A stretch of DNA of 64,000 nt from Deltaproteobacteria bacterium. GTDB taxonomy: Bacteria > Myxococcota_A > Polyangia > Fen-1088. Of the stretch, positions 34,414 through 51,053 are shown in pieces. Both the position numbers and the translations under genes were made by a program. The stretch covers positions 74,205-138,204 of the forward strand of contig JANRKS010000021.1 in assembly GCA_033763315.1 (NCBI GenBank), read 5' to 3'. The notes below the pieces were generated by a model that worked only from the letters and a program-made list of their open reading frames with translations, was not told where the DNA came from and did not search any database. Every line of letters starts with the position of its first letter. Position 1 is the first letter of the stretch.

Positions 34414-35172
34414 TTGTTGCCACTTTGGAACGCCGCGGCGACTGAATGCCCGGCCATCCTGCCGGCGGAAGCCTCGTACGTGACCACCGGGTCCCCCGAA
34501 TTTCGCTATAGATGGCGGTTGTTGCCAGAGCCTCTTTCACTTTTCGCCCCACTGTGGCGGTCGTTCACCAGCGCCCCAACCACAGCCACCGAAACGCCGG
34601 GGATCCGCGCCGACTGGCACAAAGGCCGCCCCCGCTACGCCGTTTGGGTGGTGCGCGTCAGTCACCCCGCCGTAAACGAACGCGTGGCCGCCCTGGGACA
34701 GGCCTTGAAGCCCTGGCTCATCCCGCAGCCCGATCTGCACGTGACATTGGGCATCGCGGGCTTTCCGCGCCGCCAGTGCGTGGAAGACGACGACGTTTCG
34801 GAGAACGTGCTGGCCGCCCAGGCGGACGCCGTGGCTGCGTGGGCGCGTGCCACTTTATTTCGCGTGCACGGCGCGTGCGCCTTCTTGGCGGCGCCTTTTC
34901 TGTGTGTAACGGACGACCATCACAGCCTGCGCGACCTGCGGGCGCTGCTTGATCCGCCAGGCCGTGCGTTGAGCATCGAAGCTTACGTGCCACACGTGAC
35001 TGTGGGGCGTTGGAATGGCGCTCACGCCACGGCCGCTGTGGCCCTGCGAATGGAGCCTTTTCGCAACGGCGACCCCATCGACGTGAAGGCCGATGCCGTG
35101 GAATTGGTGGACTACGACGCGGCCGATCCGCAGGCCCGGCTCGTCACGAAAGTGCGCGTTCCGATGCCTTAG
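34414..35172 (+). CDS. 2H phosphoesterase (2'-5' RNA ligase-like) family protein
   Basis: Two HxT motifs (LHVTL, PHVTV); true start uncertain, probably downstream of 34414. Confidence 0.7.
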   Translation: MLPLWNAAATECPAILPAEASYVTTGSPEFRYRWRLLPEPLSLFAPLWRSFTSAPTTATETPGIRADWHKGRPRYAVWVVRVSHPAVNERVAALGQALKPWLIPQPDLHVTLGIAGFPRRQCVEDDDVSENVLAAQADAVAAWARATLFRVHGACAFLAAPFLCVTDDHHSLRDLRALLDPPGRALSIEAYVPHVTVGRWNGAHATAAVALRMEPFRNGDPIDVKADAVELVDYDAADPQARLVTKVRVPMP

Positions 35173-37277
35173 CGGTGTGCGATCAGCACGAGCGCTTCAG
35201 GCCGCCCCAGCAGCGCTTGCAGCACGCGCAGGCTTGTTTCGGGATCAAGCGCCGCCAGCGATTCATCAAACACGCGCACGTCCACACGCTGCAACAGCGA
35301 GCGCGCCACGAACACGCGGCTCCGTTCACCGTGCGAAAGCTGCCACCCCGAATCACCAACGGTTTGATTTAAGCCCGCAGGCATGCGATCCAAAAGTGGG
35401 CCAAGGCCTAATTCACGACATACGGCATCGGCGGCGGCGATGTCTTCTTGCCGCGGTGGCCAGCGCCGGCCCAACAACAAGTTGAACAACAACGGCCCCG
35501 CGAAAATGTGGTTGTCATGAAATTGCGGCACGCCTCCAGATCGCTGGCGCCATCGCTGCGGCCCCACAGCGTGGTGATCAAAGCCGCCCAGCAGCAGCAC
35601 ACCCGAAGTGGGCACGCGCAAGCCCGAAAGAATTGCACCCAAAGTTGATTTTCCGCCTCCCGAGCCGCCTTCCAACAACACGCGTTCGTGACGACGAATC
35701 GAAAAATTGCACCCGCGCAACACGGCCTCGGGTCGGCCTTCGTAACGAAACACGACGTCGCGCCCCACCATCAAACCACGCCGCCCCACGGCGGCCTCGT
35801 CGGGAGACGCCGCCAACACGTCCGCCGAACTGGCGACGCCGCGCTGGGCGGCTGAAAACAAGAAGCGCAAGTTTCGCCACGCCACAAACGCCGCGGTCAA
35901 CGCGGGGCTCGCTTCAGCCAGGTGGCGAAACGCACCCCAGATCAGCACCACGCCACCCAAAGCCGTTGCCAATGCCGCCGACGATGTGCCGCGATCAACG
36001 AACGCTGGAACGAGCCCCAATAAGCCCAGCACCACCCAGCCGCGCGGCAAAATCGCCGTGAGCTTTGTGGCCGCTTGATCCAATAGCCATGAGCGTTCTT
36101 GGTATTCGTCAAGCGAGGCATGCAGATGGCCGAGATGCAACCCTTGGTCTTGCGCCACCAAAGTGCGGTGGCCCACCATGGCTTCCACAAGCTCGTGTGT
36201 GACCGTCAGGCGAGCGTCGGTCCACGCCGTGAGCCGACGTTGCAGGCCGCGCAGCCACCACGCGAGCAACACAAGCCACAGCACCAACAACACAAAATGG
36301 ATCACGCCCCCCGCGCCCAGGGCAAGCAGCGAGGCACCCAACACCAGATCCAACACAACCCAAATCAAAGTGGGACCGCCGCCGCGCGCGAGAAGTTCAA
36401 GCGAATCAACTTCAAGCACAGTGCCAAGCAATTGTCCCACGCCGCGCGCGCGGATCTCGCCACCATCAAGGCGCAGGATGCCTTCCAACAAACGCTCGCG
36501 GGCCAAACCCGAAAGCAGCACCACGGCGCGCCCCAAAGCTGAGCCCGCCACCGCGCGCACTCCAACCATCGTGGCCAGCAGCAAACCAAACGCCCATAAA
36601 GTGCCCGACTCCAAACGCCCTTGCAGCGCGCCGTTGGCCACCATGCCCCACGCGCCGCTGAACAACGCCAACTGCCCGATGAACCCCGCCAAGCCCGTTA
36701 GCAACAAACGTGCGGCGCCCAGGCGTCGAGCGCGTTGCCAAAACGTGGGCGCGGCGTCTTCGATCACCCACGCTTCGGCCAAAGCGCCGCCGCCTAAGGC
36801 CGCACGCATCGCACGCTCGGCGGCGAGGCGTTGCTTGCGCGGCAAGCCGAGTTCTGCAACCACCTGTGTGGCGTTTGCCGCGAACAACGCGTGCTCAAGC
36901 TGTGAGACATCGACGTAGACAGCGCCGTTGGGCGTAAGCACGCGCGCTGTGTGAGATGTGGCGGGCAAAGGCCCAACCACAACGAGGTATGCACCTTCTT
37001 CGGTCTCGGCGCTTAGGCAGCGCGCGATGATCGCGGATGCCTCTGGCAAAAGATCGGATAAGCCGCGCGCCCGCTGATCAGGTGCATCGACGGCGAGGCC
37101 CAAGCGGTGCACCCCCGCTTGCACCCAGCGATCAAGCGGAGGCCCAGCGATCACATCGGGCGCAGGGTTGGCCAGCGTGCGGAGTTCATCCACGCCGCGC
37201 AACTCTGTGTTGATCGCGGTCATCGCTTCGCCCAAGCGCGCGCGCGGCCAAGTCAATGATGCGGCCGCAACGCTCAT
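35169..37277 (-). CDS. ABC exporter (TM + NBD) with a degenerate N-terminal domain; partner of the C39 transporter
   Basis: TM domain; Walker A GGSGGGKST, signature LSHGERSR, Walker B VRVFDES, H-loop IAHR; no QxxxxDCG peptidase motif. Confidence 0.85.
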   Translation of the reverse strand: MSVAAASLTWPRARLGEAMTAINTELRGVDELRTLANPAPDVIAGPPLDRWVQAGVHRLGLAVDAPDQRARGLSDLLPEASAIIARCLSAETEEGAYLVVVGPLPATSHTARVLTPNGAVYVDVSQLEHALFAANATQVVAELGLPRKQRLAAERAMRAALGGGALAEAWVIEDAAPTFWQRARRLGAARLLLTGLAGFIGQLALFSGAWGMVANGALQGRLESGTLWAFGLLLATMVGVRAVAGSALGRAVVLLSGLARERLLEGILRLDGGEIRARGVGQLLGTVLEVDSLELLARGGGPTLIWVVLDLVLGASLLALGAGGVIHFVLLVLWLVLLAWWLRGLQRRLTAWTDARLTVTHELVEAMVGHRTLVAQDQGLHLGHLHASLDEYQERSWLLDQAATKLTAILPRGWVVLGLLGLVPAFVDRGTSSAALATALGGVVLIWGAFRHLAEASPALTAAFVAWRNLRFLFSAAQRGVASSADVLAASPDEAAVGRRGLMVGRDVVFRYEGRPEAVLRGCNFSIRRHERVLLEGGSGGGKSTLGAILSGLRVPTSGVLLLGGFDHHAVGPQRWRQRSGGVPQFHDNHIFAGPLLFNLLLGRRWPPRQEDIAAADAVCRELGLGPLLDRMPAGLNQTVGDSGWQLSHGERSRVFVARSLLQRVDVRVFDESLAALDPETSLRVLQALLGRPEALVLIAHR

Positions 37278-40006
37278 CGCGCCCCCTCGGACGCGGTTGG
37301 CGGCGCGGTCTCTTGCACTTGCCCCGCCACCAATTGCCAGCGGCGCCAGTGAGGTTCGGCGAACGCCGATTGCAAGCGCTCTTCAACCGCCAAGAATTTC
37401 GCAAATAGAGATTCAGGGTCTGCGGCCAACGCGCGCGGTGGGCCATCTTCGGCCACCCGGCCATTGGCAATCACCAACACGCGATCGAACACCATCGCGT
37501 CGGCCACGTCGTGCGTGGCGCATAAGAATGTGGCGCTGGCCCAGCGCTCCCTCGCGCGCGCCAAGAGCCGCTGCCGGCGGGGGCGTTCCAAGCCGCGGAA
37601 CGCTTCATCCAACAACACAAGCCTTGCCTGTTCCTTGTGAATGTTGCGTGCAAAACGCACGCGTTGGCCTTCACCGCCTGACAGCAACCCGCCACTTTCG
37701 CCTAACGACGATTCAAGGCCTGTGGGCAAGCGCGCCAAGACTTCATCAAGCTCGGCGTCTTCGATAGAAGCACCCACCGGAGAGTCGGGGCGCGAAGAGC
37801 CATAGCGCAGGTTTTCAAGCAAGCTGCGGTTCCACAACTGCACCGATGGATCCACCCACACAGTGTGGCGCCGCAAAGCTTCAACGAGAGCCGGGCAAGA
37901 GGCCTCTCCATCTAAGTTCACCTGCCCGCGCGCGGGCTCGTGCCACCCCATCACCAAACCCAACAGACTGCTTTTGCCGCTGCCTGAAGCCCCCACCATG
38001 GCCACGTGGCCACCCGCGGGCAAGTGAAGTGACTCGATCACGAGAACTTCATGGCCGCCCGCCTCCACGCGCACATCATCAAAGCGCAGGTCCACACCCG
38101 TCGAAGCCTGTGAGGGCACCTCGGCGGGCCGTTCGGCATCGGCGGCGCCCAAAGGCTCGACGAGGCGCGCGGCAAGGTTCTTTTGCCGCGGAATTTGTTG
38201 CAACAAGAACGCAAACTCTTGCCCGAGCGCCGGCAGCGACAAACACCAATACACAAGCAGCAAGGCCCATCCAGAGCCCGGCGCGCGCGTCAGGTGATCG
38301 AACAGCAGCGCCAAGGCAAAGCCATAGCCCACCAAGGTAACGGTGGCTTCCGAACGCACGGCGTATCGTGCCGCTTGCCACGCGGAACGGGCCCATTCTT
38401 CGAGGCGCGTGGAATGCTCACGCATCAACGCCGTTTCGCCCGCGTGGGCACGCACGGCTTGCAAACCCAAAAGCGCATCCAGATAAAACACCGACAACGC
38501 GCCCGCATGCGCCCGCACGCGCATGTCGCGCTCTTCGTGCCCCGATTGCATAAGCAAGGGAAAGCCCACAAGCGCCGCAAGCGAAAGCAAAGCCAAGGGC
38601 GTGCCACGCGGGTGCAACCAAATTACACCCGCGGTGGTCACCATCAATTCGCAGGTCACACGGAAGATCTGGCCTGCGTAAAACGGCAGCGATCGGATCT
38701 GGTGGATCTGGTGCGCCCGCGTGGCCATGTCTGAAACAGGACGGCTTTGAAAATACGCGTCTTGCAAGCGCGGCAGCTTGTTTAAAAAGGCACGCCGCAA
38801 ACCGCCTTCCAAGCGACGTCCAAGCGATGCCAGGCCCAAGGCGGTGGGCCACTCAAGCAACAGCAATGACGTGGCGAACAAGGCCACCATCGCCACAGCG
38901 GCAACCCGGTGTGAAAACAGGGGCAAGCGTCGGCCGATGTCGAAGAAGGCACGGAACAACACCGCTTCCACCAGCGAACCCGCCGCCGCCAAACCAAGCC
39001 CTGCCCCGAGTAACCAAGGGGCGCGTTTCCCCGCCGTTGCCACCAGCCGCAGCAGCACCTTCGCCACAGGCTCTTCTGCGCCCGCCAAAGCGCGCGTGGT
39101 GGCCGTGGCCGGCGCGTTTGTTTGTGCAGAACCCGCGGGCTTAACACCATCCAATGCGATGGCCACAGCGCCGCGCATTTTCACCATCTTCACTGTTGTG
39201 TGCGTCGGGCCACCGGGCTCGCGATGTTCAGGCGGAACTTCCTCTTGCACATCCGCAGCGGGCTTGGCCAGCCGCAGGGCCTCGGGGATGGCGTTGGGGT
39301 TGTTGGCAGACGCGGCCACCAAACCATCGATCACGCGCGCGGCTTGTGCGGCGGAAAACCCGGCGTGGCCTTGCAGCCCTTCGGCCAAGCGCAAAGCACC
39401 TTCCAAGCGGCAAAACGCTTCCCAGCCTTGCGCCACAGCTTCATCAAAGCGTGCGGCTGCACGTGTGCACCCCGCGGCTTGCAGGCGCGCCACCACCACA
39501 CGCCGCAAGCCCGGATCGTGAACGAAATCTAAAAACGCTTCGAGCGGCACGGGCACATCCACCATGGCCACTTGCCGCATGAATTCACGGTGGTGCACCC
39601 AATGCCGCCCGCGCGCCGGATCCATCACTTGCAGGTATGGGCCCACGCGCCGCCACACCACCACGAAGTGCAAGATGCCCGAAGGCATCGCCGTCACCAC
39701 GATCGCGGGCATGAGATCTGCGCGGTTCATCAATAGATGTTCCACGGGCATCACAGACTCGGCCGCGTCCAAACCCAACTCCTGCAGCACGGCCTCCAGC
39801 GCGGACACGGCGGTGCCATCCACGCTGGTGTGGCAGGCCTCGCGCAGACGCCCGTAGCTGACGGCGACGCCGTAACCTTCAAGCACGCTCTTTAAACACG
39901 CAGGCCCGCAGTCCATCGCTGAGGTTTGAATCGCCTCAGGCACGAAGAACCGACGCCGCGCGCGCCGCCGGCTGGCCGCTTTGGAATCCGCGTCTTCTTG
40001 GCTCAT
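37274..40006 (-). CDS. Peptidase C39-containing ABC transporter (PCAT)
   Basis: QTSAMDCGPACL (catalytic Cys), HFVVV (His), VMDPARG (Asp); TM domain; GASGSGKS, LSGGEGQR, LLDE, THD. Confidence 0.92.
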   Translation of the reverse strand: MSQEDADSKAASRRRARRRFFVPEAIQTSAMDCGPACLKSVLEGYGVAVSYGRLREACHTSVDGTAVSALEAVLQELGLDAAESVMPVEHLLMNRADLMPAIVVTAMPSGILHFVVVWRRVGPYLQVMDPARGRHWVHHREFMRQVAMVDVPVPLEAFLDFVHDPGLRRVVVARLQAAGCTRAAARFDEAVAQGWEAFCRLEGALRLAEGLQGHAGFSAAQAARVIDGLVAASANNPNAIPEALRLAKPAADVQEEVPPEHREPGGPTHTTVKMVKMRGAVAIALDGVKPAGSAQTNAPATATTRALAGAEEPVAKVLLRLVATAGKRAPWLLGAGLGLAAAGSLVEAVLFRAFFDIGRRLPLFSHRVAAVAMVALFATSLLLLEWPTALGLASLGRRLEGGLRRAFLNKLPRLQDAYFQSRPVSDMATRAHQIHQIRSLPFYAGQIFRVTCELMVTTAGVIWLHPRGTPLALLSLAALVGFPLLMQSGHEERDMRVRAHAGALSVFYLDALLGLQAVRAHAGETALMREHSTRLEEWARSAWQAARYAVRSEATVTLVGYGFALALLFDHLTRAPGSGWALLLVYWCLSLPALGQEFAFLLQQIPRQKNLAARLVEPLGAADAERPAEVPSQASTGVDLRFDDVRVEAGGHEVLVIESLHLPAGGHVAMVGASGSGKSSLLGLVMGWHEPARGQVNLDGEASCPALVEALRRHTVWVDPSVQLWNRSLLENLRYGSSRPDSPVGASIEDAELDEVLARLPTGLESSLGESGGLLSGGEGQRVRFARNIHKEQARLVLLDEAFRGLERPRRQRLLARARERWASATFLCATHDVADAMVFDRVLVIANGRVAEDGPPRALAADPESLFAKFLAVEERLQSAFAEPHWRRWQLVAGQVQETAPPTASEGAR

Positions 40007-41193
40007 GGGGCCGCCTTGCCTTCGGCGTGGTTTGTGCCAGCCGCTTGCGCATCGATGCCTGTGACGAAGCGACCAGCGGCATCGAGCACCATCGTCAGCG
40101 GCGACGTTTGTTCCACCTTCACTTCCACAAGCCCCGGCAAACCGTGTTCAAGCGGCGCCGTGTTGCCAGCTGTGCGTGAGACGTCGAGCTCCACGCGTAT
40201 CAAGCCGTCATTGGGCTCGGAGCCGACGTTCGTCACACGCACAGCGAGCGCGCCGTATTTTGTCCAAGGAAAGCCAAGCAAACGCACGCGCCCCGTTTGC
40301 CCGCGTTTGATGCGGCCCACCGCCGCTTGCGGATCGAAGAACGCCACCACGCGCAAGCCGCCTTGGGGCACCACCACCGCCAAGCGCGTGCCTTCCTCCA
40401 CCACCGCCCCCGCGCGCAACGCACGCACGTCGCCCAAACGCCCGGATACGGGCGCGCGTATCGTGCGCAGCTCCACCTCACGCCCGAGCGTGCGCAGATG
40501 CGCCTGGCTTTCGGCCCGCATCGCTTCAAGTTGTGCGATCTCAAGTTCGATGCGCGCCAAACGCGCGCGGCGATCGCTGCGTTTCGCGATGACTTCGCCA
40601 CCCAGCCGTTTGACGCCGGTGCGTGCGGCCTCGGCCTCGGCCACGCGTTGTTCTGCCTCGGACTTCATGCGTGAGGATTCAAGTTCCGCCACGATGCGCT
40701 GCTGCCGCAGCCGTTCCAGTTGCGACGTTTCGCTGGTTTTCAGTGTTGCCACAGCTTCACTGGCCCGGCGCATGGCTTCGGCCTCTTCGTGGGCCGCCAC
40801 CGCCGCGACGCCCTCGCCCACCGCGGCCCGCTCATCGGCCGTCATCTCTTTGCGAAGGGCGTTGATCTGCGGTTCAAGCGCGGCCAGATGTGCCGCTTCC
40901 TTCGCCAACGCCAAGGAGAAGGCCTCGGCGTCCAATTGCACCAGCACGTCTCCCTGTTTCACCATGGCACCCAAAACCAAGTCGCTGCGCAACACGCGCC
41001 CCGACACAGGGGCATCCACGGGGTTAGAAGCGGTGTCCACTTCAAGCCGGGCGCTGTGCGAAGCGGCGTAAACAGACAGCTTCGCGAACAAGAACCACGC
41101 GGTCCAAGCAAACAAAAGCAAGCCACCCGCCAGCGCCGACCAAGCGGGGGCGTTCTGGAAGGGGGCCAAAGCAGAGGCAAACTTTCGCGGCAT
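40003..41193 (-). CDS. HlyD-family membrane fusion protein
   Basis: N-terminal TM, VDAPVSGRV...VKQGDVLVQLD, long coiled coil, IRAPVSG, GFPWTKYG; ATGA-coupled to the PCAT. Confidence 0.9.
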   Translation of the reverse strand: MPRKFASALAPFQNAPAWSALAGGLLLFAWTAWFLFAKLSVYAASHSARLEVDTASNPVDAPVSGRVLRSDLVLGAMVKQGDVLVQLDAEAFSLALAKEAAHLAALEPQINALRKEMTADERAAVGEGVAAVAAHEEAEAMRRASEAVATLKTSETSQLERLRQQRIVAELESSRMKSEAEQRVAEAEAARTGVKRLGGEVIAKRSDRRARLARIELEIAQLEAMRAESQAHLRTLGREVELRTIRAPVSGRLGDVRALRAGAVVEEGTRLAVVVPQGGLRVVAFFDPQAAVGRIKRGQTGRVRLLGFPWTKYGALAVRVTNVGSEPNDGLIRVELDVSRTAGNTAPLEHGLPGLVEVKVEQTSPLTMVLDAAGRFVTGIDAQAAGTNHAEGKAAP

Positions 41194-41327
41194 GAGCGGG
41201 CGCTAGAGTACCGCAGAACCTCACCGAAGCAGGTCCAAAGACCGGGTGTGTGACGCAAGCCGCTCTGCGCTCGGGGAACCTGCAATCCGCTTGACGGAAC
41301 GTTCTCTTTCGAGAACACTTGCTTCCG

Positions 41328-42890
41328 ATGAAGGCTATCGTTTTGGTGATTTTGGCGCTGGCTTGCGCAGCCCGTGAGGCGAACGCCAAAACGCCCCTCC
41401 ATCGCACGCGCCCGTTGAGCTATGCGTCGCTTGGCTTTTGGTGGGGCACAGGCTGCCCTGACAACGGCCGCTGCGCGTGCAGCCCCACCGCCACGACGAT
41501 GCAGGAGGAGGCCAGCTGCCAACTTGACGCCCTGGCCAAGCACGACTTTCCCGTCGATGTGTTTTTGTTTGACGGCAATGCGTGGTCAAAAGCCAACTCG
41601 TTCAAAGACAACCAATGCCGTGGCGAAGACTGCTGCGAATGGAAGTTAGGCGATGGCTTGATCGACCGGATGAAAGCCCAGGGCGTTCGAGCCGTGCTGC
41701 ACTTTTGGGGTGGATGCCACCAGGACGAACAATATGAACGCGCCCATCGGCGCTTGGGCAAAGTGCTGCTGGGATTTTATCTCGACGACGGATCGTCGGA
41801 CGCCGAAGCATCCCGCGCCAGTGCGTTCTTGGCCCGCGTGGCGCCTGGCGATTCAGACGTTGTGTGCAAAGCCATTCAAGGCCGGGACGACAAAACCAGC
41901 GAAGCGTTTCTTTCGTCCACCGCGAACGTAAGCTACGTCGGCGACACCCACTATGACTGGCAGGGCCTCAAAGACGGCATCAAGCGGTTCTTCACAAAGG
42001 GGCCACTGCTTCCGGCCGCGTTCAACGAACTGACGGGGTACTGGTATCCGAAGGAAGGCACGCCCGACGAAGAGACGGTGTATCGACGTTTACACTGGGG
42101 CGCCGTGCAACCAATCATGGCGCACACGCCGTTCGCAAACATGGATCCTTGGCAACACGGCTATTCCGCGGAGCTGCTCGCCGCCTATCGCCGATGGGCC
42201 TGGTGGCACAAAGAGCTCACGCCCTACATCTACAGCCTGTCGATCGCGATGCACGAGAACCCCGCCGAACCGGTCATTCGCAATGCTTCTTTGCCAAACG
42301 AATCAATGCAACTGGGGCCCAACATTTTTGCGGCATTCGTCAGCGATCCGAAGGTGAGCGCACGTGACGTGCAGTTGCCGCCGGGACGATGGATCGACGT
42401 TTGGAATGAAGACAACGTGCTATCGGGCCGCGTGAAGCAGCACCCAGCCAAGCCGGGATTCGAACCTGTGTTCGTTAAAGAAGGCGCGTTGCTGCCGCTA
42501 CAGGTGGCGCGCCCTTATGCAGATCACGGCACGCGCGCTTCGGCAGACAGCTTAACGTTGCTGGCATACCCAGCCGGAAAATCTACTTTTAGGTACCGGG
42601 ATCACGTTCGCAACCAATGGCACGTGTTCACGTTGAAGCAGCAAGGCCCGGCGCTGTCGTTGGACGCCGCACCACGGTTTCGACGCCTGCCGGTGTTGCT
42701 GCGGCTGGGTCGACAAAAGCAGCCACCGCAATCCGTTGGCATCAAAGGAGGCCGGCTGTTGGTGAATGCCACCGATCGTATCGCCGCCTTGCCACAAGTC
42801 GCAACAGAAGACGCCGTCAACGCCGCGGGCGCTTCGTGCTGGTTCTTCGACGCGCAGAAAAGGCGATTGATCGTTAAGTGGGTCCCCTAG
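41328..42890 (+). CDS. Secreted GH31-like glycoside hydrolase
   Basis: Signal peptide; FPVDVFLFD, GFYLDDG, YVGD, HWGAVQPIM, LTPYIYS, LPPGRWID, PVFVKEGALLP follow the GH31 motif order; lacks the usual N-terminal beta domain. Confidence 0.65.
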   Translation: MKAIVLVILALACAAREANAKTPLHRTRPLSYASLGFWWGTGCPDNGRCACSPTATTMQEEASCQLDALAKHDFPVDVFLFDGNAWSKANSFKDNQCRGEDCCEWKLGDGLIDRMKAQGVRAVLHFWGGCHQDEQYERAHRRLGKVLLGFYLDDGSSDAEASRASAFLARVAPGDSDVVCKAIQGRDDKTSEAFLSSTANVSYVGDTHYDWQGLKDGIKRFFTKGPLLPAAFNELTGYWYPKEGTPDEETVYRRLHWGAVQPIMAHTPFANMDPWQHGYSAELLAAYRRWAWWHKELTPYIYSLSIAMHENPAEPVIRNASLPNESMQLGPNIFAAFVSDPKVSARDVQLPPGRWIDVWNEDNVLSGRVKQHPAKPGFEPVFVKEGALLPLQVARPYADHGTRASADSLTLLAYPAGKSTFRYRDHVRNQWHVFTLKQQGPALSLDAAPRFRRLPVLLRLGRQKQPPQSVGIKGGRLLVNATDRIAALPQVATEDAVNAAGASCWFFDAQKRRLIVKWVP

Positions 42891-42903
42891 CCTTTAGGAG
42901 TTT

Positions 42904-43656: not shown

Positions 43657-43736
43657 CCGCGGCGGCCGCGCCGGGGAACCCCGTCAGGATTTGGAGGTTG
43701 CATCTGCCATGCCGGCGCGCCACTGTAGCAGCCCTC

Positions 43737-44795
43737 ATGGTTCACCTTCCCACCGATAAAGCCGCCGCCTTGGCTGAAAAGGCTCACTTGGCATTCGTTG
43801 CCGAGCAGTTCGAGCAAGCCGAAGCTCTGTTCACAGAGTCATCAACGTTGCTGCGTTCGCATGTTGTCAAATCCAAAGCGCCTGACGAAGACGCGGCCCG
43901 CACATGGGTGGCCGCCCATTGCGGCGCCGCTTCGGCCGCGCGGGCCCAAGGCGGGTACGCCCGCGCCGAAAAGCGTTTGAACGAAGCTGAAGCCTTCGTG
44001 CTGCGCACCTACGGGGCCAAGGACGCCGTTTACGCCAACGTGCTGAATGAGCGCGGCATCTTGCGCAAGTACCAAGGCCGCTTCAAAGAAGCGGAGGCCG
44101 AATACAAGAAGTGCAAGCCACTCATAGCCAAAGGCTTCGGCAAAGACAGCGAGTCTATGTCGGTGCTGTTGCACAACTTGGGCGGCATTGCGCACGCGCA
44201 AGGGCACTGGAAGCGCGCCGAAGCGTATGCGCGCGAAGGGCTGCGCTTGCGCCAAAGCTTGCCGAAGCCAGATGCTGTGGCCGTGGCCGCCGATCAAAGC
44301 GCCCTCGCCGCCATCTTGGATGTGGCTGGCAACCACGACGAAGCGGCCACGCTGTTGGCAGAGGCTTTGGCGACGTTCAAGAAGAAGCTGGGCCCACGCA
44401 GCTTCGAGGTGGGTGTTACGATGGAGACGCTGGGCAACCTGCACTACCGCATTCACGATTTGCCCAAAGCCGACAAGCTGCTAACCGCGGCGCTTGAGAT
44501 TCAACAAGAGCGCTTGGGCGCCGGCCACCCAGAACTCGCGTTCGCGTTGCATAACCTCGCCGTGGTGCGCATTGATCGTGGGCAACCCGAAGACGCCCGC
44601 CCGTTACTACAAGAAGCGTTGGCCACGTTTAAGAAAACCTTTGGCCCGAAGCACGCGAACACGCTTGTGGTCAAAGATCGGCTCGAATCACTGGGCAAGG
44701 CGGCCGCGCCCCTCAAAAAAGCGGCGCCGATCCCCACAAAGAAGCCGCAACGCAAAACCACAAAGACGGCTGCGAAGTCCAAAAAAGCTCGCTAA
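43737..44795 (+). CDS. Tetratricopeptide-repeat protein (kinesin-light-chain-like TPRs) with Lys-rich tail
   Basis: About 42-aa repeats (VLNERG, LHNLGG, METLGN, LHNLAV; GAGHPE, GPKHAN); start placed at ATG 43737. Confidence 0.8.
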   Translation: MVHLPTDKAAALAEKAHLAFVAEQFEQAEALFTESSTLLRSHVVKSKAPDEDAARTWVAAHCGAASAARAQGGYARAEKRLNEAEAFVLRTYGAKDAVYANVLNERGILRKYQGRFKEAEAEYKKCKPLIAKGFGKDSESMSVLLHNLGGIAHAQGHWKRAEAYAREGLRLRQSLPKPDAVAVAADQSALAAILDVAGNHDEAATLLAEALATFKKKLGPRSFEVGVTMETLGNLHYRIHDLPKADKLLTAALEIQQERLGAGHPELAFALHNLAVVRIDRGQPEDARPLLQEALATFKKTFGPKHANTLVVKDRLESLGKAAAPLKKAAPIPTKKPQRKTTKTAAKSKKAR

Positions 44796-46264
44796 GCGCG
44801 AAACTTTTCCACGTCAATGCCGTGGCGGTCCACCGCGCGCTTGATCACCTTCCAATGGCGATCAAGTTCGCGGGCCACTTCGCTCACATTGCCTTGGTGC
44901 TTGCGCAGAAGCGCTTCTAACTCTTCCTTTGTTGGAATGCGCCGTGGTGAGCGACGACGCGACGGCCCGCCTTCATCGTCATCTTCCTCTTCGGGGGCAC
45001 TCGCCACCAACACGGGTGCGGATGGGCGGTTGCCGGTGCTTGTGCCTGTGGGGCCAAACCCATCAACGACGGTGCCGTTTTCGCCAACGAGGCCCGCGAT
45101 CTCTTCGGGCACGTGCGCCAACCCCAACTCAGCCGCGCCTTCACCCAAGAGCGCCGCCGTTTCGATCACCTTCTTGAGCTCGCGCACATTGCGCAGCCAA
45201 GGGTGAAGGCACAACGCCAAAAACAGCACAGGATCCAGCGGCTTCGAAGGCCCGCGCCCGCCATTCGTGAGGAAGAAGTGAATCAACACACCCAGATCCT
45301 CACGACGCGCGCGCAACGGCGGCAACGTGAAGGCGGCGGCACCCATGCGTCCCACGAGATCTTCGCGCAAACCGGGCGACCCGTTGCCACCACCGGGGCG
45401 GCTGGTGGCGGCCAACACGCGCGTTTCCACGTGACGCGAACGCGTGGCCCCCAACGGCACGATCTCGCGGCTTTGCAGAAACCGCAGCAACTTGGCCTGC
45501 GCGGTTTGTGGCATGTCGCCGATCTCATCCAGAAACAATGTGCCGCCCTCAGCCTCTTCAATCAGTCCACGCTTTGATTGCATGGCTTGCGAGTGAGCGC
45601 CGCGCACATAGCCAAACAGTTCGCTTTCAACCAAGTCGCCGGGCAACGCCGCGCAGTTCACGGCCACAAGCGGGCCACCGCGGCCGCTGGCCTTGTGAAT
45701 CGCCTCCGCATAAACCTCTTTGCCAACCCCGGTTTCCCCCACCAGCAAGATCTCATGCTCGGAGCGCGCCATCTTGCGCAGCTTCACTTCGCCGGCGGCG
45801 GTGGCGGGCGACGCGGTGACGATGGGGCCCAAAGGGTTGCGTGCAGAGTCGCTAAGGCATGCTTGATCGTCGGCGGACAGCCACCGGAAGACTGCCGCGT
45901 GGCCGCCGAAGAACAACAGATCACCATCGGCCAGGGGCACCGGGCCGCGCACCAAAGCGCCGTTGCGAAGCGTGCCGTTCGTGCTGCCTAGGTCTTCCAG
46001 CACGCACAAGCTGCCTTGGCGCTGGATGAAGGCGTGTTTGCCCGAGGCACGCCGGTGGGTGAGGCGCCAGGCGGGCAACGAATCTGTGGATTCGGCGTTG
46101 CGACCGATCTGCAAACCGCCCGGGCCGATCAACAGGACGCGCGCGGCGCCCGCAGGTGCGGCGCCCCCCAAAGCGGCATCTCCCACGACGATGAGGGACG
46201 GCGTGCGCGTCGACGACGCCACCGGAGATTGAATTTCCGTGCTGGGACCTGGCATGACGCTCAT
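44792..46264 (-). CDS. FHA-domain sigma54-type enhancer-binding protein (AAA+, Fis HTH)
   Basis: FHA: IGR, SGKHA, DLGSTNGT. AAA+: GETGVGKE, ESELFG-YVRGAHSQA, LFLDEIG, NVREL. C-terminal HTH GNVSEVARE. Start placed at ATG 46264. Confidence 0.9.
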   Translation of the reverse strand: MSVMPGPSTEIQSPVASSTRTPSLIVVGDAALGGAAPAGAARVLLIGPGGLQIGRNAESTDSLPAWRLTHRRASGKHAFIQRQGSLCVLEDLGSTNGTLRNGALVRGPVPLADGDLLFFGGHAAVFRWLSADDQACLSDSARNPLGPIVTASPATAAGEVKLRKMARSEHEILLVGETGVGKEVYAEAIHKASGRGGPLVAVNCAALPGDLVESELFGYVRGAHSQAMQSKRGLIEEAEGGTLFLDEIGDMPQTAQAKLLRFLQSREIVPLGATRSRHVETRVLAATSRPGGGNGSPGLREDLVGRMGAAAFTLPPLRARREDLGVLIHFFLTNGGRGPSKPLDPVLFLALCLHPWLRNVRELKKVIETAALLGEGAAELGLAHVPEEIAGLVGENGTVVDGFGPTGTSTGNRPSAPVLVASAPEEEDDDEGGPSRRRSPRRIPTKEELEALLRKHQGNVSEVARELDRHWKVIKRAVDRHGIDVEKFRA

Positions 46265-46315
46265 GTGGTGCCCATCGACCATACAACGGCCCGCGCGCGG
46301 CTCGAAGGCCCGGCG

Positions 46316-46373
46316 TGGGACTGCGGTTGGGACTCGTTGGGACTCGTTGGGACTCGCGTGGGTGCAGTCCCAA
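46316..46373. promoter_or_regulatory. Phased TGGGACT repeats, candidate enhancer/operator
   Basis: TGGGACT at 46316, 46328, 46338 and 46348 (three perfect GTTGGGACTC units, 46326-46355), plus an inverted AGTCCCAA at 46366-46373, in the divergent intergenic region. Confidence 0.6.
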
Positions 46374-46457
46374 GGAGATGGCGCGGAATCATGCGTTTTC
46401 GGCCGAAAGAGCGGGGATTTTGGCGGGGCACGCGTTTTTTCAGAAGGGCTGGAACGT

Positions 46458-46472
46458 TGGCACGAAGGTTGA
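46458..46472 (+). promoter_or_regulatory. sigma54-type promoter for the repeat-peptide gene
   Basis: TGGCACG-AAGG-TTGA: perfect -24 box, -12 box TTGA instead of TTGC; 76 bp upstream of ATG 46549. Confidence 0.65.
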
Positions 46473-46548
46473 AGTAGTCCCTCTCGTCCGAACGGCAGCA
46501 AGCCGCAAGACACCCACCAACCCCAACTTCCAACGAAAGAGATTCCCC

Positions 46549-46953
46549 ATGAAAACCTCCAAGATGATCGTTCGCACCTCCACTGGCATCAAAGCTGGCG
46601 GCCTCGTCTCCACCAACCACAACCGCGCTCTCATCAAAGCCGCTTCGGGCGCCAAGGCGGGCGGTCTCGTCTCCACCAACCACAACCGCGCTCTCGTCAA
46701 AGCTGCTTCGGGCGCCAAGGCGGGCGGTCTCACCAGCATGAACCACAACCGCGCTCTCGTTAAGGCTGCTTCGGGCGCCAAGGCGGGCGGTCTCACCAGC
46801 ATGAACCACAACCGCGCTCTCGTTAAGGCTGCTTCGGGCGCCAAGGCGGGCGGTCTCACCAGCATGAATCACAACCGCGCTCTCGTTAAGGCTGCTTCGG
46901 GCGCCAAGGCGGGCGGTCTCACCAGCATGAACCACAACCGCGGATTGATCTAA
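46549..46953 (+). CDS. Multi-cassette double-glycine peptide precursor (134 aa, six NHNR cassettes)
   Basis: MKTSKMIVRTSTGIKAGG-LVSTNHNR-ALIKAASGAKAGG-LVSTNHNR-[ALVKAASGAKAGG-LTSMNHNR]x4-GLI; purine-rich AAAGAGA upstream; a C39 transporter lies about 6.5 kb away. Confidence 0.8.
   Translation: MKTSKMIVRTSTGIKAGGLVSTNHNRALIKAASGAKAGGLVSTNHNRALVKAASGAKAGGLTSMNHNRALVKAASGAKAGGLTSMNHNRALVKAASGAKAGGLTSMNHNRALVKAASGAKAGGLTSMNHNRGLI
46591..46941 (+). repeat. Coding tandem repeat, 63-bp unit, about 5.6 copies
   Basis: Units begin at 46591 + 63n (last at 46906); differences between units are synonymous or conservative, and frame is preserved. Confidence 0.95.
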
Positions 46954-46958
46954 CTCGC

Positions 46959-49900
46959 TCATGATTCGCCACGGATCCAATCGGTTCCCGTTTTGAGATG
47001 AACGTGCGGGGACCGTGGTTCGGGAATGGCGGGAAACTTCAAGCCGAGCGAGTGTGCCTGTCGCGCCAGCAGACCAACATCTGGCAGTGACGCCAACACA
47101 CGCTCTCGATCGTCCTGGCTTTGCAAAACGCTCAAACGCTTCTCCAAAGCCACCAACGCTTCCGCAGCCACTTCGCGCGCCTGTGCCATATCTCCCTCAG
47201 CGCGAAGGCATTCAACCCCTGCAAGCCACACGAGAAACTCTGCGTGTTCAGCGCCACCCAAACGACGAAGCGTGGCCACAGCAGATTCGGCATAGATGCG
47301 CGCGTCCTTACCACGGCCCACCATCAGTAAGGCGCGCGCCAATGCAGCCTCGGCGGTGAACAGCAACGACGGTGTTTTGGCCAGATGGGACACGGCCTCC
47401 TCAGCCCGCGCCAGCGCCAGGTCGCCGCGCTCCTCCGCCAAAGCGGCTTGTGCCAACAAGATCGAGCAGAAGCCAACAACCCGTGGGTCGTTCTGCCCGT
47501 CGCCGCCCGCGAGAGCTTCTTCGACCATCTGGCGCGCCTCCGCGTTTTGTCGCCGGCACAGCAAGGTCGCTGCCAGATTCACCTGGCCCATAAGAAGCGT
47601 GTAGTGGCCGCCTAATCGACGCGACAATGCGATGAGGTCGCGTGCGGCCTTCTCAGCTTCTTGCAGTTGCCCGACGTCGGTCAGCGTGCACACAAGGTTG
47701 TTAAGCACCCCGCACGACTCGCGCAAATCTCCCACGATGTGGAACAGCTCAAGCGCGCGCCTTGCATCGTCGATGGATTGTTGCGCTTTTCCGAGAATGA
47801 GATGCAAATGCGTGCGCAGCGAATACCACATCGCGCGCAGACGAAGATCCCCACCAAGGGCCACTTCACGCACGTTCTCGAGAACGGAAATCACAACCAG
47901 CGGCTCGTTCAGGAACAAGAAGAATCCTGAGGCCTGAAGCACGGCATACGTCCACTGATGGGACGCGCCATCATCGCTCTGGCAATCGAGCAGCTGCTGG
48001 TGCGACTGCCTCATCAGGTCGAACTTCTGCTGATGACCAAGCGAGATCGTCAACTCGCGCAAAGCCTCCAGATGCAGATCGCCCCGCAACCACTCCAGAG
48101 CCTTACGCGCCGCCTCCTCACCTGCGGGCCAATCGCCCCGGTACATGTGCGCGCGGCATGCCACCAGATGCAAGCGCCCCAGCTCCTCGTCTTGCGGCCC
48201 TAAGGCGTGCGCGCGGGCGCAGCGGTCAAACACACCCTCAAAATCGCTGGCATCCAACGCTTGTTCGGCGGCCACGCGCCACTGAACCAAGGCCGCCTGC
48301 GTTTCGCCCGCGCGCTCGAAATGCGACGCCAACACAACACCATCACGTTCACCGCAGTCTTGCAGGTAAAACGCCGCAAGCTTGTGGCCCACGCGGCGAT
48401 CAACGTCCGTCAGCGTGTCGTAGGCCGCGTCTTTCACAAGGGCGTGGCGAAACTGCCAGCGCTCGTCGTAAGGGTTGACCTCGCCCGTGCTTGTGCGCAC
48501 GTCGGGCGACATGATGAGCTCGGCGTTCGACAACACGTCCAGCCACTCCACCACGTCCGCGCGCAGTTCCGCGGGCAACAAGGCCGCCACACCGCCCGCG
48601 ACAAAGCCTTCGCCAAACACAGAAGCCGCACGCAGCACACGTTTGCCGGCGTCACCCACTTGATCCAATCGCCCCTGCACAGCGGCCAAAACCGTGGGTG
48701 GCGTGGCGTGCCCCGCTCCACCGCCGTGAACCGCTTCCACGCGCACCAGTTCTTCGAGAAAGAACGGATTGCCATCGGCACGTTCGATCAAGGCCTGCGC
48801 GCGTTCGTCTGAAAGCTCAGGCAAAACCGCTTTGATCAACTCACGCGCCGCGCGTGCACGCAAAGGCGAAAGCGTGATGCGATCGGCGGTGTCGCGCCAC
48901 AGGTTGGGAAAGCGCGCGTTCACCTCGGGCCGCGCAAACGCCATCACAACGAGGGGCATGGTGCGATATGCCTTCATCGCGGCGTCCACCAGAGCGATCG
49001 AAGGTGCGTCGCCCCAGTGCAAATCCTCAAGCACCAGCAACACACGCGAATTCATCAGCGCGGCGGCCAACCAATCAAGCCAGGCCACGCGCACCTGATC
49101 TGCCATCGTGCGCGGATCTTGCCGCGCCGCCAACACCAGTGGGATAAGATGAGACGGTGTTTCAAGGCCCGCAATTTCGCCGAGAAACGCCCACACACGC
49201 GCGCGATCAGGGCCGGCCAACGTGGGCGCCGAAAGCGCCAAAAAGTCCTCAAGCTTCGCACTTTGCTGCCCGGGCGAATCCGTTGCCACCACCTGTGCCG
49301 CTTGTTTAAACGCCGCGCCCAAGATCTCGTATGGCGCCCCCGCCCTGAATGCATCGGCCACTCCCACCAACGGCAGCAGCACGTCGTCTTCCTCTTGCAA
49401 CCGCCGCAACAACTCACGCCGCAATCGTGATTTGCCAGCGCCCGCGGGCGCCAAGATCAAAGCGGCACCGCAGCGGGGCTCATCGAAGCATTCAGTCACC
49501 AAGGCTTCAAGCGAGCGCAGTTCGCGTTCACGCCCCACGAAAGGAACCTGCCGGCCCATCACCAAACGTGATGAAGCGTTGGCACCGATCTCACCCACCA
49601 GTTGGTATGCCGCGCCGGCTTCCGTTTGTTGCAGCAGCACGGAGAATTGCTCGCTCAGCAGTTCGGCTGTGTCTGCATCCACATAAACGGCCACCGCCTC
49701 GCCCATCGCTGACGATGCGGCCGCGGGCGACAACGCCACCAAGCGCGTGGTCTCGTCGATCGCTGCACCCACCAAAACGCGCCCCTCCACTGTGGCCCGC
49801 CCCAGCGCCAAGGCCATCGCTCGCCCTGCCAAGACCGAACGCAACTCCAACGCCGCGCGCGCCGCACGCACCGCAAGTTCACGCGCGCCGCCCACGCCGA

Positions 49901-51053
49901 ACGTCACCAAAGAAGACCCTGACAGCAACACCTGCGCCTCGCCGCCCCACCGGGCCACCACCTCTTGCAAACGTTTGGCTTCATCGGGCCGGGTGTCAGC
50001 CTGTGGCCCGGGGCCCACCATCAACACCATCACAGGGCGCGCTTCACGCGCACCCAACGACTTGGATGCAACCGGCTGCGCAGGCAACGTCCCCACAGAT
50101 TCAGCCACGGCGCGCAGTTGCGCTGCCAACGCCAGAGCGTCGGCCGGCCGATCCTCTGGCGCGCGCGACAACATGCGCGACACCACAGGCGGTAGGCCCG
50201 AGGGCAATACGTCCAACACGTCGGCGGGCACCACCGAATCAGCCAAAGCCAGTTTCGCCAAGCCCGCTGAACCTGCCCCCGCAAACACGGGGCGACCGGT
50301 GATGCACTCAACGAGCACACACCCCACGGCGAACACATCGGCGCGACCGTCGAGCTCCTTCTGCCCCAACGCTTGTTCGGGCGCCATATAAAGCGGCGTG
50401 CCCATCACCTGCCCCGTCAACGTGCGCATCCACCCGTGAACTTCACGTGCCACGCCGAAATCCAACAACTTTGCCTGCGCAAGATCGCCACCCGGCAGGA
50501 ACACGTTCGAGGGCTTAAAGTCGCGGTGAACCACGCCTCGTGCGTGCGCGGAGCCGAGCGCATCCAACATGCGCGCCATCACCAGGCATGCGTGCGCAGG
50601 CTCAAGTGGCCCGTGGTTCAAACGTTCGCGCAGGTTTTCACCCGCCAGCAGTTCCATCACCAAGTACGGCGCGCCCGCTGCTGTAAGCCCATGGTCCAGA
50701 TACTTCACGATGGCGGCGTGCCGCAGCGATGCCAGCACACGCGCTTCACGTTCAAACATCTGCGACGTATGAACGTCCACTTGGGCCGCCGTCTTCACCG
50801 CGACCAAAGCGCCCGACACACGATCGCGCGCACGGAACACCACGCCGCCCCCGCCAGAGCCGATCACAGCGAGGATCTGGTAGCGATCACCCAAGACATC
50901 ACCCCGCGTCGATGCAGCATCGACGTCGCGGCGAAGCTCGGCGACCGGCCCGACCTGCGTGGTGTCGTCCGGCTCGGAAGCGGTGGGAGGTGGGGGAGGG
51001 TGCCCCATGTGTGGCATCGGGTTACCACAAGCAAGGCCAGAACGCCTGTTCAT
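46959..51053 (-). CDS. Ser/Thr protein kinase fused to a degenerate cyclase-like region, an AAA/STAND-type ATPase and TPR-like helices
   Basis: IGSGGGGVV, VAVK, HRDFKPSN, DFG, GTPLYMAPEQ; FVGRERE, APAGAGKS, LEDLHWGD, GNPFFLEE; helical repeats at the C-terminus; exact start uncertain. Confidence 0.9.
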   Translation of the reverse strand: MNRRSGLACGNPMPHMGHPPPPPTASEPDDTTQVGPVAELRRDVDAASTRGDVLGDRYQILAVIGSGGGGVVFRARDRVSGALVAVKTAAQVDVHTSQMFEREARVLASLRHAAIVKYLDHGLTAAGAPYLVMELLAGENLRERLNHGPLEPAHACLVMARMLDALGSAHARGVVHRDFKPSNVFLPGGDLAQAKLLDFGVAREVHGWMRTLTGQVMGTPLYMAPEQALGQKELDGRADVFAVGCVLVECITGRPVFAGAGSAGLAKLALADSVVPADVLDVLPSGLPPVVSRMLSRAPEDRPADALALAAQLRAVAESVGTLPAQPVASKSLGAREARPVMVLMVGPGPQADTRPDEAKRLQEVVARWGGEAQVLLSGSSLVTFGVGGARELAVRAARAALELRSVLAGRAMALALGRATVEGRVLVGAAIDETTRLVALSPAAASSAMGEAVAVYVDADTAELLSEQFSVLLQQTEAGAAYQLVGEIGANASSRLVMGRQVPFVGRERELRSLEALVTECFDEPRCGAALILAPAGAGKSRLRRELLRRLQEEDDVLLPLVGVADAFRAGAPYEILGAAFKQAAQVVATDSPGQQSAKLEDFLALSAPTLAGPDRARVWAFLGEIAGLETPSHLIPLVLAARQDPRTMADQVRVAWLDWLAAALMNSRVLLVLEDLHWGDAPSIALVDAAMKAYRTMPLVVMAFARPEVNARFPNLWRDTADRITLSPLRARAARELIKAVLPELSDERAQALIERADGNPFFLEELVRVEAVHGGGAGHATPPTVLAAVQGRLDQVGDAGKRVLRAASVFGEGFVAGGVAALLPAELRADVVEWLDVLSNAELIMSPDVRTSTGEVNPYDERWQFRHALVKDAAYDTLTDVDRRVGHKLAAFYLQDCGERDGVVLASHFERAGETQAALVQWRVAAEQALDASDFEGVFDRCARAHALGPQDEELGRLHLVACRAHMYRGDWPAGEEAARKALEWLRGDLHLEALRELTISLGHQQKFDLMRQSHQQLLDCQSDDGASHQWTYAVLQASGFFLFLNEPLVVISVLENVREVALGGDLRLRAMWYSLRTHLHLILGKAQQSIDDARRALELFHIVGDLRESCGVLNNLVCTLTDVGQLQEAEKAARDLIALSRRLGGHYTLLMGQVNLAATLLCRRQNAEARQMVEEALAGGDGQNDPRVVGFCSILLAQAALAEERGDLALARAEEAVSHLAKTPSLLFTAEAALARALLMVGRGKDARIYAESAVATLRRLGGAEHAEFLVWLAGVECLRAEGDMAQAREVAAEALVALEKRLSVLQSQDDRERVLASLPDVGLLARQAHSLGLKFPAIPEPRSPHVHLKTGTDWIRGES

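Follow-up and report, generated by a model that had tools for sequence, protein, structure and literature searches.

Peptide pheromone circuits belong to the textbook biology of Gram-positive bacteria. It is general knowledge that in the ComC/ComAB/ComDE system of Streptococcus, and in the three-component regulation of class II bacteriocins, a small peptide gene lies beside the genes of a receptor kinase and a transcription factor, the peptide promoter depends on that factor, and a C39-type ATP-binding cassette (ABC) exporter, encoded nearby or elsewhere, acts at a Gly-Gly site. To our knowledge, such circuits are almost unknown in the diderm soil phyla, whose hundreds of Hanks-type receptor kinases are mostly without a known ligand. 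Here we describe a locus of similar gene logic in a member of the Polyangia (Deltaproteobacteria bacterium, assembly GCA_033763315.1, contig JANRKS010000021.1, positions 74,205 to 138,204). The window, i.e., the whole 64,000-nucleotide stretch that was analysed, has a G+C content of about 61%, and its own numbering is used throughout. It encodes a repeat-peptide precursor (46549-46953, plus strand), together with a kinase, a transcriptional activator and a peptidase-containing ABC transporter (PCAT) homologous to ComA and PCAT1. Unlike in the ComC-type circuits, Hanks-type Ser/Thr kinases with tetratricopeptide repeat (TPR) sensors stand in for histidine kinases, and an FHA-domain enhancer-binding protein (EBP) with sigma54, or a phosphorylation-type extracytoplasmic function (ECF) sigma factor, stands in for the response regulator; the precursor lacks a canonical leader and consists of 2-14 tandem units, the host cells are diderm, and a HlyD adaptor and a second ABC subunit form part of the exporter. 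The reading that we tentatively favour, at somewhat less than even confidence, is that the exported multi-unit peptide is the output, and probably also the ligand, of kinase-linked transcription modules.

Other described systems share parts of this arrangement. Export systems for NHLP- and Nif11-type peptides that are made by ribosomes and modified after translation (RiPPs; TIGR03794, TIGR03796 and TIGR03797) likewise combine a HlyD-like adaptor, a C39-PCAT and a second ABC protein. However, the proteins described here score far below the equivalog cut-offs of the NHLM models (168.7 vs. 853.3, 92.7 vs. 709.4 and 44.3 vs. 156.2 bits), and the window has neither an NHLP or Nif11 leader nor a modifying enzyme. 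Multi-copy precursors, such as yeast alpha-factor, the plant CLE and CEP polyproteins and the cyanobactins, are also built from repeated units in which a short variable core sits in a conserved processing frame, a design by which one translation product yields several peptides, but they depend on other proteases (Kex2, subtilases, PatA/PatG) and share no homology with the present family. The AfsK-AfsR-AfsS system of Streptomyces, compared by gene context only, resembles the locus in its Ser/Thr kinase, ATPase-TPR protein and adjacent small repeat gene. PMC10832544 describes AfsS as being encoded beside afsR, activated by AfsK-phosphorylated AfsR (a protein with SARP, ATPase and TPR domains), and composed of 2-5 short repeats that carry an Asn/His motif and bind AfsR. 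AfsS differs in being intracellular and in having no exporter; AfsR binds DNA via its SARP domain, and the system belongs to another phylum. A further parallel is offered by ECF sigma factors activated by Ser/Thr kinases (PknS/EcfK and PknT/EcfP), since a membrane Ser/Thr kinase and an ECF sigma of the TIGR02999 type, which we take to be equivalent to ECF43, are found together at 18 of the 71 family loci described below. According to PMC8999054, kinase-linked ECF sigmas such as ECF43 are activated by phosphorylation, and the sigmas of the family carry an HTLQxT stretch where the phospho-Thr is described for EcfP. The known modules differ in controlling type VI secretion or polymyxin resistance genes and not a repeat-peptide gene, and the window uses an FHA-EBP.

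The precursor gene of the window was delimited in a six-frame motif scan. It starts with the ATG at 46549, 7 nt downstream of the sequence GAAAGAG, ends with a stop at 46953 and encodes 134 amino acids: an 18-residue head, five units of 21 residues and a last unit of 11 residues ending in NHNRGLI. It reads MKTSKMIVRTSTGIKAGG, followed by two copies of LVSTNHNRAL(I/V)KAASGAKAGG, three copies of LTSMNHNRALVKAASGAKAGG and finally LTSMNHNRGLI. All six KAGG sites are in one frame and each is followed by LVST or LTSM plus NHNR, in agreement with the first-pass annotation of this DNA; elsewhere in the six frames of the window there are one further KAGG and no further KAGG..NHN. At the DNA level the gene is a 63-bp tandem array (5.2 copies, 95% matches), in which codon differences among the units, summed over pairs, amount to 35 synonymous vs. 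16 non-synonymous. A 239-codon antisense open reading frame (ORF; 46261-46980, minus strand) that stays open across the whole array was rejected as an artefact of the GC-rich repeat, its frame not being conserved. The product is strongly basic and contains no Asp or Glu. It had been said to belong to no recognised named family, and this holds: a Pfam scan gave no family above cut-off (the best being Gly-zipper_YMGG with 27.0 vs. 28.9 bits and TACO1_YebC_N with 17.2 vs. 36 bits), an NCBIfam scan gave no family at E<=0.01 and no match to a bacteriocin-signal model, and the neighbours in the ESM Atlas are 'hypothetical protein' clusters with no Pfam family in common. Contigs from three RNA libraries (three runs from three studies) match 46525-46667, and one of them also 46723-46815, with 88-97% likeness. 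They are no more than a hint that the family is expressed, as they come from relatives and such libraries can contain DNA; the uncovered parts of 46250-47050 say nothing on silence of the flanks or on habitat.

The precursor belongs to a large family that has no Pfam or NCBIfam model. A protein search of 61 related genomes gave matches in 19, in 17 of which the precursor ORFs were read, the other two (G031 and G049) giving weak matches. While a word-indexed protein search returned 5 relatives only, an exhaustive profile search yielded 1826 cluster representatives at E<=1e-3, of which 325 also pass E<=1e-10; with few exceptions they have 50-240 residues. A degenerate DNA pattern, KAGG..NHN..KAGG, retrieved 73 loci from a species-level genome collection, and 71 of these contain 83 precursor ORFs with 2-14 units each. 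The carriers are Myxococcota (strains or metagenome-assembled genomes (MAGs) of Polyangia, Sorangium, Labilithrix and Nannocystales) and Acidobacteriota (Acidobacteriia, Bryobacterales, Solibacteraceae, Blastocatellia, Vicinamibacterales and Thermoanaerobaculia), plus one Singulisphaera. A literature search, whose coverage left out supplements and subscription journals, found no description of this precursor family.

In the unit logo, drawn from 357 units of 154 representatives, the frame G-L-(K/R)-V-(K/R)-(S/T)-x-(V/I)-K-A-G-G precedes a core that usually has 3-4 residues, and the core is followed by N-H-N plus R, Q or E. About three quarters of the units have L, F, I, M, V or W as the first residue of the core, beyond which its composition is near-random. 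The cores change between close relatives: compared with the orthologue of a same-genus genome (G001), there are 4 amino-acid changes in the first 26 codons, 3 of them in the core, and the core length goes from 4 to 3. Most members turned out to be short, with 2-3 units in 43 of the 83 ORFs and in 120 of the 154 representatives. On the minus strand of locus L019 (genome G002) there is even a 25-residue single-unit ORF, MKNVKVKSGVKAGGLGTVNHNRGLL, with a plausible ribosome-binding region upstream. With one frame plus one core, it would represent the family in its smallest form. A folded repeat domain is hard to reconcile with a single-unit ORF and with members of mostly 2-3 units. The genome of the window itself encodes a paralogue on another contig, of 115 residues and six units with F(K/R)x cores. 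It has its own 1366-residue kinase-AAA-TPR protein and its own FHA-EBP in the same layout, its promoter reads TGGCAT-GCGTT-GTGAA, and there is no exporter within three genes.

The kinase gene of the window (46959-51053, minus strand) is convergent with the precursor gene, the two stop codons being 5 nt apart. Its product, of 1364 residues, has a Ser/Thr kinase domain (Pkinase, 143.8 bits), a STAND ATPase domain (AAA_16, 53.7 bits) and TPRs (TPR_10/TPR_12), and its closest NCBIfam model is TIGR03903 (TOMM_kin_cyc; 265.5 bits vs. a cut-off of 705). It lacks a transmembrane helix after the kinase domain and is soluble. On the other side of the precursor lies the divergent gene of the FHA-domain sigma54 EBP (ORF 44792-46513, minus strand), with FHA at 45.5 bits, Sigma54_activat (PF00158) at 164.6 bits vs. 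a cut-off of 20.2, AAA_lid_14 at 38.5 bits and HTH_8, at 17.1 bits, below cut-off. Its conserved part begins near Met78 (46282), and alignments with orthologues begin at residues 91-107. Four direct copies of GGGACT (46316-46357) and an inverted AGTCCC (46366-46371) form a putative enhancer, or upstream activating sequence (46316-46371); the copies are phased at 10-13 bp, and Tandem Repeats Finder reports TGGGACTCGT with 3.9 copies and period 10. A sigma54-type -24/-12 element, TGGCAC-GAAGG-TTGAA (46458-46473, plus strand), is located 76 nt 5' of the precursor ATG. The search pattern for such elements has 3 matches in the window vs. 0.89 expected, and the genome contains rpoN (at 441 bits, above cut-off).

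The control region shows a clear footprint of conservation. In an alignment of the 240 nt upstream of the precursor with those of the G001 orthologue, the GGGACT block, the promoter through +1 and the ribosome-binding site are near-identical and the sigma54-type element is identical, while the spacer has diverged. As the G001 orthologue is located on another contig than its kinase/EBP/TPR/exporter cluster, the sites that the two genes share speak for the same activator acting in trans. Across the family, 15 of 75 precursors have the strict motif TGG(C/T)AC-N5-(T/C)TGC(A/T) in the 160 nt upstream of them, vs. 8 of 2833 random windows of the same loci, an enrichment of about 70-fold; for a relaxed motif the figures are 24 of 75 and 198 of 2833, respectively. 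Relatives carry the canonical TGGCAC-N5-CTGCA. A palindrome, TAGTCATATGAC(TA), recurs 60-150 nt upstream of the sigma54 promoters in several genera (L028, L034, L036-L039, L055, L056 and L025), and is probably the EBP binding site there; it differs from the GGGACT repeats of the window genus. Loci with a TIGR03001 sigma have CGTCCGAA-N4-GCGGA upstream instead. In the acidobacterial loci, a candidate ECF-type promoter consensus is discernible by eye, with TGA(T/G)C-like and GCGCC(C/T)TAC-like boxes after a tract rich in A/T, and a regular expression for it matched only 1 of 23.

The genes around the precursors were scored in the 71 pattern loci over 8 kb each. Signalling genes of any kind are present in 50 loci: a Ser/Thr kinase in 36, an ECF sigma of TIGR02999 in 18, a soluble TPR protein in 12, often directly 3' of the precursor, a TIGR03001 sigma in 8 and an EBP in 4. 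Exporter genes of any kind are present in 15, immediately adjoining the precursor in 8 (second ABC in 10 loci, PCAT in 7, HlyD in 6). Both classes occur together in 11 loci, and neither in 17. Of the 17 relatives' loci, 12 have a Ser/Thr kinase no more than three genes away from the precursor. Typical gene orders are ECF sigma, precursor, kinase and precursor, TPR protein, kinase. Where the exporter is included, the genes are co-directional and run precursor, ECF sigma, HlyD, PCAT, ABC (L090), precursor, precursor, TPR protein, HlyD, PCAT (L096) or precursor, HlyD, PCAT (L099); the precursor also adjoins the exporter in genomes G012, G029 and G004. Several cassettes per genome are common, each with its own kinase and sigma factor. 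One hydrophobic helix separates the kinase domain from the TPR region in all 31 full-length kinases of the pattern loci and in 12 of 14 of the first set, the two exceptions being the window kinase and its paralogue.

The exporter operon of the window lies on the minus strand, 5.4 kb from the precursor, and consists of three genes joined by overlapping stop and start codons. The first (40003-41193) encodes a HlyD-family membrane fusion protein of 396 residues (HlyD_3, 58.3 bits) with a single N-terminal hydrophobic helix. The second (37274-40006) encodes the C39-PCAT of 910 residues (Peptidase_C39, PF03412, 68.9 bits vs. a cut-off of 22; ABC_membrane 32.4; ABC_tran 71.3), whose best NCBIfam match is TIGR03796 at 168.7 bits vs. 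853.3. The third (35169-37277) encodes the second ABC subunit of 702 residues (ABC_tran, 57.9 bits), which has no peptidase domain and five hydrophobic segments; its closest specific NCBIfam models are CydC/CydD-like and TIGR03797 (NHLM_micro_ABC2, 92.7 bits vs. 709.4). The idea that the N-terminal 190 residues of this protein are a degenerate C39 domain was ruled out (hhalign probability 0.1), and an orthologue of it comes after the PCAT in every one of the 17 related loci that were examined. In the PCAT, the Gln, Cys, His and Asp motifs of the C39 domain (QTSAMDCG, HFVVVW and MDPARG) are intact, with Q10, C16, H96 and D112 invariant in an alignment of 16 orthologues, and the domain aligns with the C39 structures of PCAT1 (4ry2) and ComA. 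It is the sole C39 domain found in this genome. A sigma54-like element was looked for upstream of the exporter operon and none was found. Next to the precursor region, a soluble TPR protein is encoded on the plus strand (open from 43578, likely start Met at 43737, end at 44795; TPR_12 172.7 bits). It has no transmembrane or signal segment, nor do 11 of 11 homologues, and a homologue adjoins the PCAT in 10 of 17 related exporter loci; similarity to the TPR regions of the kinases is generic (E 3e-11 and 0.007), hence no special kinship is claimed. The operon with its intact C39 motifs, the flanking TPR and kinase genes and the promoter with phased repeats between precursor and EBP had all been pointed out in the first-pass annotation, and each was found in its place (TPR gene at 43578-44795), the -12 element reading GA.

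Does the precursor travel with the exporter? With a threshold of at least 180 bits, PCAT orthologues are present in 24 of the 61 related genomes. Among the 19 precursor-positive genomes the PCAT is present in 16 and absent from 3, namely G009, G025 (86% complete) and G049 (with its weak precursor match); among the 42 precursor-negative genomes it is present in 8 and absent from 34. In the exporter-only genomes, the exporter sits amid housekeeping genes. The precursor nearly always travels with the exporter, the converse is untrue, and one good genome is an exception. No co-occurrence statistic is offered because the genomes are related to each other. The association on which the first-pass annotation had staked its proposal is seen in these numbers (16 of 19 vs. 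8 of 42) and in the adjacency of the genes in many loci of two phyla, and is loosened by the 8 genomes with the exporter alone and by G009. Orthologous HlyD/PCAT/ABC trios outside the family were seen beside a LanB-like N-terminus (L046, genome G053) and beside two large paralogous proteins (L045, genome G046); being flanked by other candidate systems, these trios suggest that the exporter type serves other peptide systems too.

The interpretation of the peptide as an exported output and ligand is favoured because the gene logic matches that of an autoinducing peptide circuit: a small gene driven by an adjacent factor, a receptor-type kinase beside it, a C39 exporter near or elsewhere, and a variable core in a constant frame. 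According to this scheme, a Hanks-type Ser/Thr kinase pathway would be dedicated to transcription of the precursor. In the window, the soluble kinase-ATPase-TPR protein would act together with the FHA-sigma54 activator, presumably through phosphorylation in the EBP pathway, and the activator would bind the GGGACT repeats and fire the TGGCAC-N5-TTGAA promoter. In the relatives, the partner of a membrane kinase would be an ECF sigma (TIGR02999), a TIGR03001 sigma or an FHA-EBP. The precursor would then be handed to HlyD/C39-PCAT/ABC, possibly aided by the soluble TPR protein, and the exporter would cut at Gly-Gly (KAG|G or KAGG|), freeing several copies of a short cationic peptide; it is known that C39 domains cleave behind Gly-Gly as the substrate is exported. 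The TPR domains of the kinases, extracytoplasmic in most relatives, would be the likely receptors, and their sensing of the peptide would close an autoinducing or kin-specific signalling loop. Of the kinase, FHA-EBP and sigma54 wiring proposed earlier, the conserved enhancer and promoter, the sigma54 promoters of relatives and the position of kinases as the commonest neighbours speak in favour, while the autoinducing loop is still an inference.

Several observations weigh against this scheme. Canonical double-Gly leaders have 15-30 residues, hydrophobic positions at -4, -7 and -12 and an LSxxELxxIxGG-like sequence. The precursor has the Gly-Gly itself, in six KAGG sites, but in the frame before it Lys, Ser/Thr and Gly occupy -4, -7 and -12, respectively, with hydrophobic residues at -5, -9 and -11, and because the residues at -4, -7 and -12 are not hydrophobic it departs from the canonical leader; the heads of the precursors are also short (10-18 residues). 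Of the 357 scored units, 207 have exact KAGG and 34 have KAGA or KAGS, about one third of the units lack the second Gly, other site forms are RAGG, KAAG, KAGE and KAGD, and some proteins have no GG at all. The double-glycine reading of the first-pass annotation is partly supported, by the six KAGG sites and the intact C39 domain, and qualified by the non-canonical frame and by the many KAG-x units of relatives. Cleavage at GG alone would leave 21-mers that still bear the next frame, and no second protease is conserved near the precursors in the neighbourhood clustering of the 71 loci. As the mature product, the octapeptide L(V/T)S(T/M)NHNR has no support over the 21-mer. The exact precursor sequence is held in the ESM Atlas, with a model (predicted local distance difference test (pLDDT) 0.66, predicted template modelling score (pTM) 0.49) whose nearest structures are beta-helices and solenoids.

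The other unfavourable points concern export, control and sensing. A second search, with the family profile, covered five of the eight exporter-only genomes and gave zero precursor matches. In G009, which is 96% complete and has a four-unit precursor, as well as in G025, a C39 domain is absent at E<=1e-3, and the related genomes are not independent samples. The -12 dinucleotide of the window promoter is GA and not GC. The GAFTGA loop of the EBP reads GAHSQA (window 45590-45630, residues ~295-315); GAHS(Q/T)A is found in 4 of 4 precursor-linked FHA-EBPs examined (those of the window, L005, L025 and L028, from three genera), while other EBPs in the set keep GAFTGA. The altered loop may be a variant of this lineage that has adapted jointly with the unusual -12 element (TTGA). 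Finally, as the kinase of the window genus has no membrane helix, its TPR region should be cytoplasmic.

The best surviving alternative, which we consider rather unlikely, holds that the peptide is an exported effector, i.e., that the PCAT releases a cationic antimicrobial, bacteriocin-like or other peptide and the kinases sense prey, competitors or envelope stress. All of the export evidence applies equally to this possibility. PCATs classically export bacteriocins, the peptides are strongly basic, with no acidic residue in the window protein, and the hypervariable cores would be compatible with an arms race. Ser/Thr kinase/ECF modules are known to turn on defence functions, as described for PknS/EcfK (see also PMC8999054). 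The neighbourhood clustering, however, shows no conserved immunity-like gene. Moreover, in three-component bacteriocin loci the small GG-peptide gene beside the kinase and regulator encodes the inducer, not the toxin. Cognate ligand-receptor pairs are a better fit than an effector to the presence, in many genomes, of several cassettes that each have a kinase and sigma factor of their own.

Next in order comes an unsecreted, AfsS-like co-regulator, an unlikely explanation in which the repeats would bind the TPR/ATPase region of the kinase or the soluble TPR protein, thereby tuning transcription of their own gene. It draws on both paralogous cassettes of the window genome, where a kinase-AAA_16-TPR protein without a membrane helix is encoded beside the small repeat gene, on the soluble TPR genes directly 3' of precursors in many loci, whose products have no signal or transmembrane segment, and on G009, with its precursor and no C39 exporter. 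PMC10832544 adds that the 2-5 short Asn/His-motif repeats of AfsS are needed to bind AfsR. On the other hand, exporter genes adjoin precursors or run co-directionally with them in two phyla, and the TPR region lies beyond a membrane helix in the great majority of neighbouring kinases (31 of 31 and 12 of 14).

The structural models bear on a third alternative, a repeat protein whose units stack, with an Asn/His ladder and a Lys-rich surface, as a beta-solenoid or an amyloid-like fibre, exported whole after the first GG cut as a matrix or surface component. The frame does alternate hydrophobic and basic residues (L-K-V-K-S-x-V-K) before the Gly-Gly and the Asn-His-Asn turns, the ESM Atlas model superposes on models of the SufBD beta-helix, ice-nucleation and phage Gly-rich proteins (template modelling (TM) scores by query of 0.7-0.9), which keeps the idea weakly alive, and the AlphaFold2 model shows a periodic pattern of three short strands. 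We regard this alternative as very improbable. The AlphaFold2 model (24-row alignment) is of low confidence (mean pLDDT 53.9, pTM 0.41, no residue >=70). Members have mostly 2-3 units, and one ORF a single unit, which does not suffice for a solenoid monomer. The three Lys/Arg ladders stacked in each rung would presumably repel each other, and capping segments are absent. Fast change of core residues and length between close relatives is unusual for a structural core, and the idea leaves unexplained why every gene copy has a kinase and a sigma factor to itself.

Modified peptides were also considered. Among the 43 predicted proteins of the window scanned with Pfam there is no LanM, LanB/M, YcaO, radical-SAM, ATP-grasp or similar enzyme, as had been noted before for LanM, YcaO and radical SAM; the lanthipeptide, YcaO and radical-SAM readings were dropped, the required enzymes being absent from the window. 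Triceptides and related three-residue cyclophane RiPPs have an adjacent radical SAM/SPASM maturase and aromatic-X-X motifs. This candidate was rejected, since a radical SAM neighbour occurs in 1 of 17 relatives' loci and none recurs in the 71 pattern loci, nor does any other modifying enzyme family recur in their neighbourhood clustering. The single locus of this kind, L027 (genome G011), encodes a 1031-residue B12-binding radical SAM protein (10614-13706, minus strand) beside a ten-unit precursor (9729-10388, minus strand), which may be a coincidence or may mark a lineage in which the peptide is modified. Modification by the product of a distant gene is possible.

Two other kinds of neighbour were encountered. 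A protein of 440-470 residues with no Pfam or NCBIfam match adjoins the precursor in several genera and one Acidobacteriia MAG and is present in 8 of the 61 related genomes (L037: 1836-3179, minus; L028: 10385-11713, minus; L034: 8360-9727, minus; L036: 10358-11767, plus; L069: 2384-3727, plus). The AlphaFold2 model of a 448-residue member has a pLDDT of 76.4 and gives weak matches to dUTPase-like or cupin-like beta-barrels (TM 0.1-0.4). It was ruled out as part of the system of the window, not being found in that genome. Large DUF5916-type proteins recur beside precursors as well (L025: 6910-9432; L028: 15713-18838; 6 of the 71 pattern loci, e.g., L064: 4608-7184), and they may be outer-membrane components of the system. 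In the window itself, a GH31-like gene with a secreted product and a short-chain dehydrogenase/reductase (SDR) gene lie between the exporter and the TPR gene (41319-43656); the pair was seen in the window genome only, and the two are treated as passengers because they are absent from all 17 related exporter loci. Unrelated to the precursor, a lipid/polyketide-type cluster occupies 11140-31502, with a 2240-residue polyketide synthase bearing a terminal aminotransferase domain (22240-28959), NeuB, a fatty-acid hydroxylase, an epimerase, a class-III aminotransferase and an SDR.

A broader proposal, which we regard as possible though less probable than the local circuit it builds on, is that soil Myxococcota and Acidobacteriota share a so far undescribed peptide language for cell-cell communication or kin recognition. 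The ligands would be coded by tri- or tetrapeptides framed by KAG(G) and NHN, exported by PCATs and read by TPR ectodomains, whose kinases would phosphorylate ECF sigmas or recruit FHA-EBPs and so re-induce the precursor, with several orthogonal channels per genome. The units of the precursor are short enough for synthesis. If one of the alternatives discussed above is true, the family is still new, as secreted cationic peptides or as AfsS-like regulators outside Actinomycetota. In general, it offers a concrete candidate class of ligands tied genetically to TPR-sensor kinases and to phosphorylation-dependent sigmas or FHA-EBPs. Should the peptide indeed be the exported output and ligand of these modules, the finding would add a new precursor architecture to the substrates of PCATs and would give a function to many orphan kinase/ECF/EBP modules in Myxococcota and Acidobacteriota.

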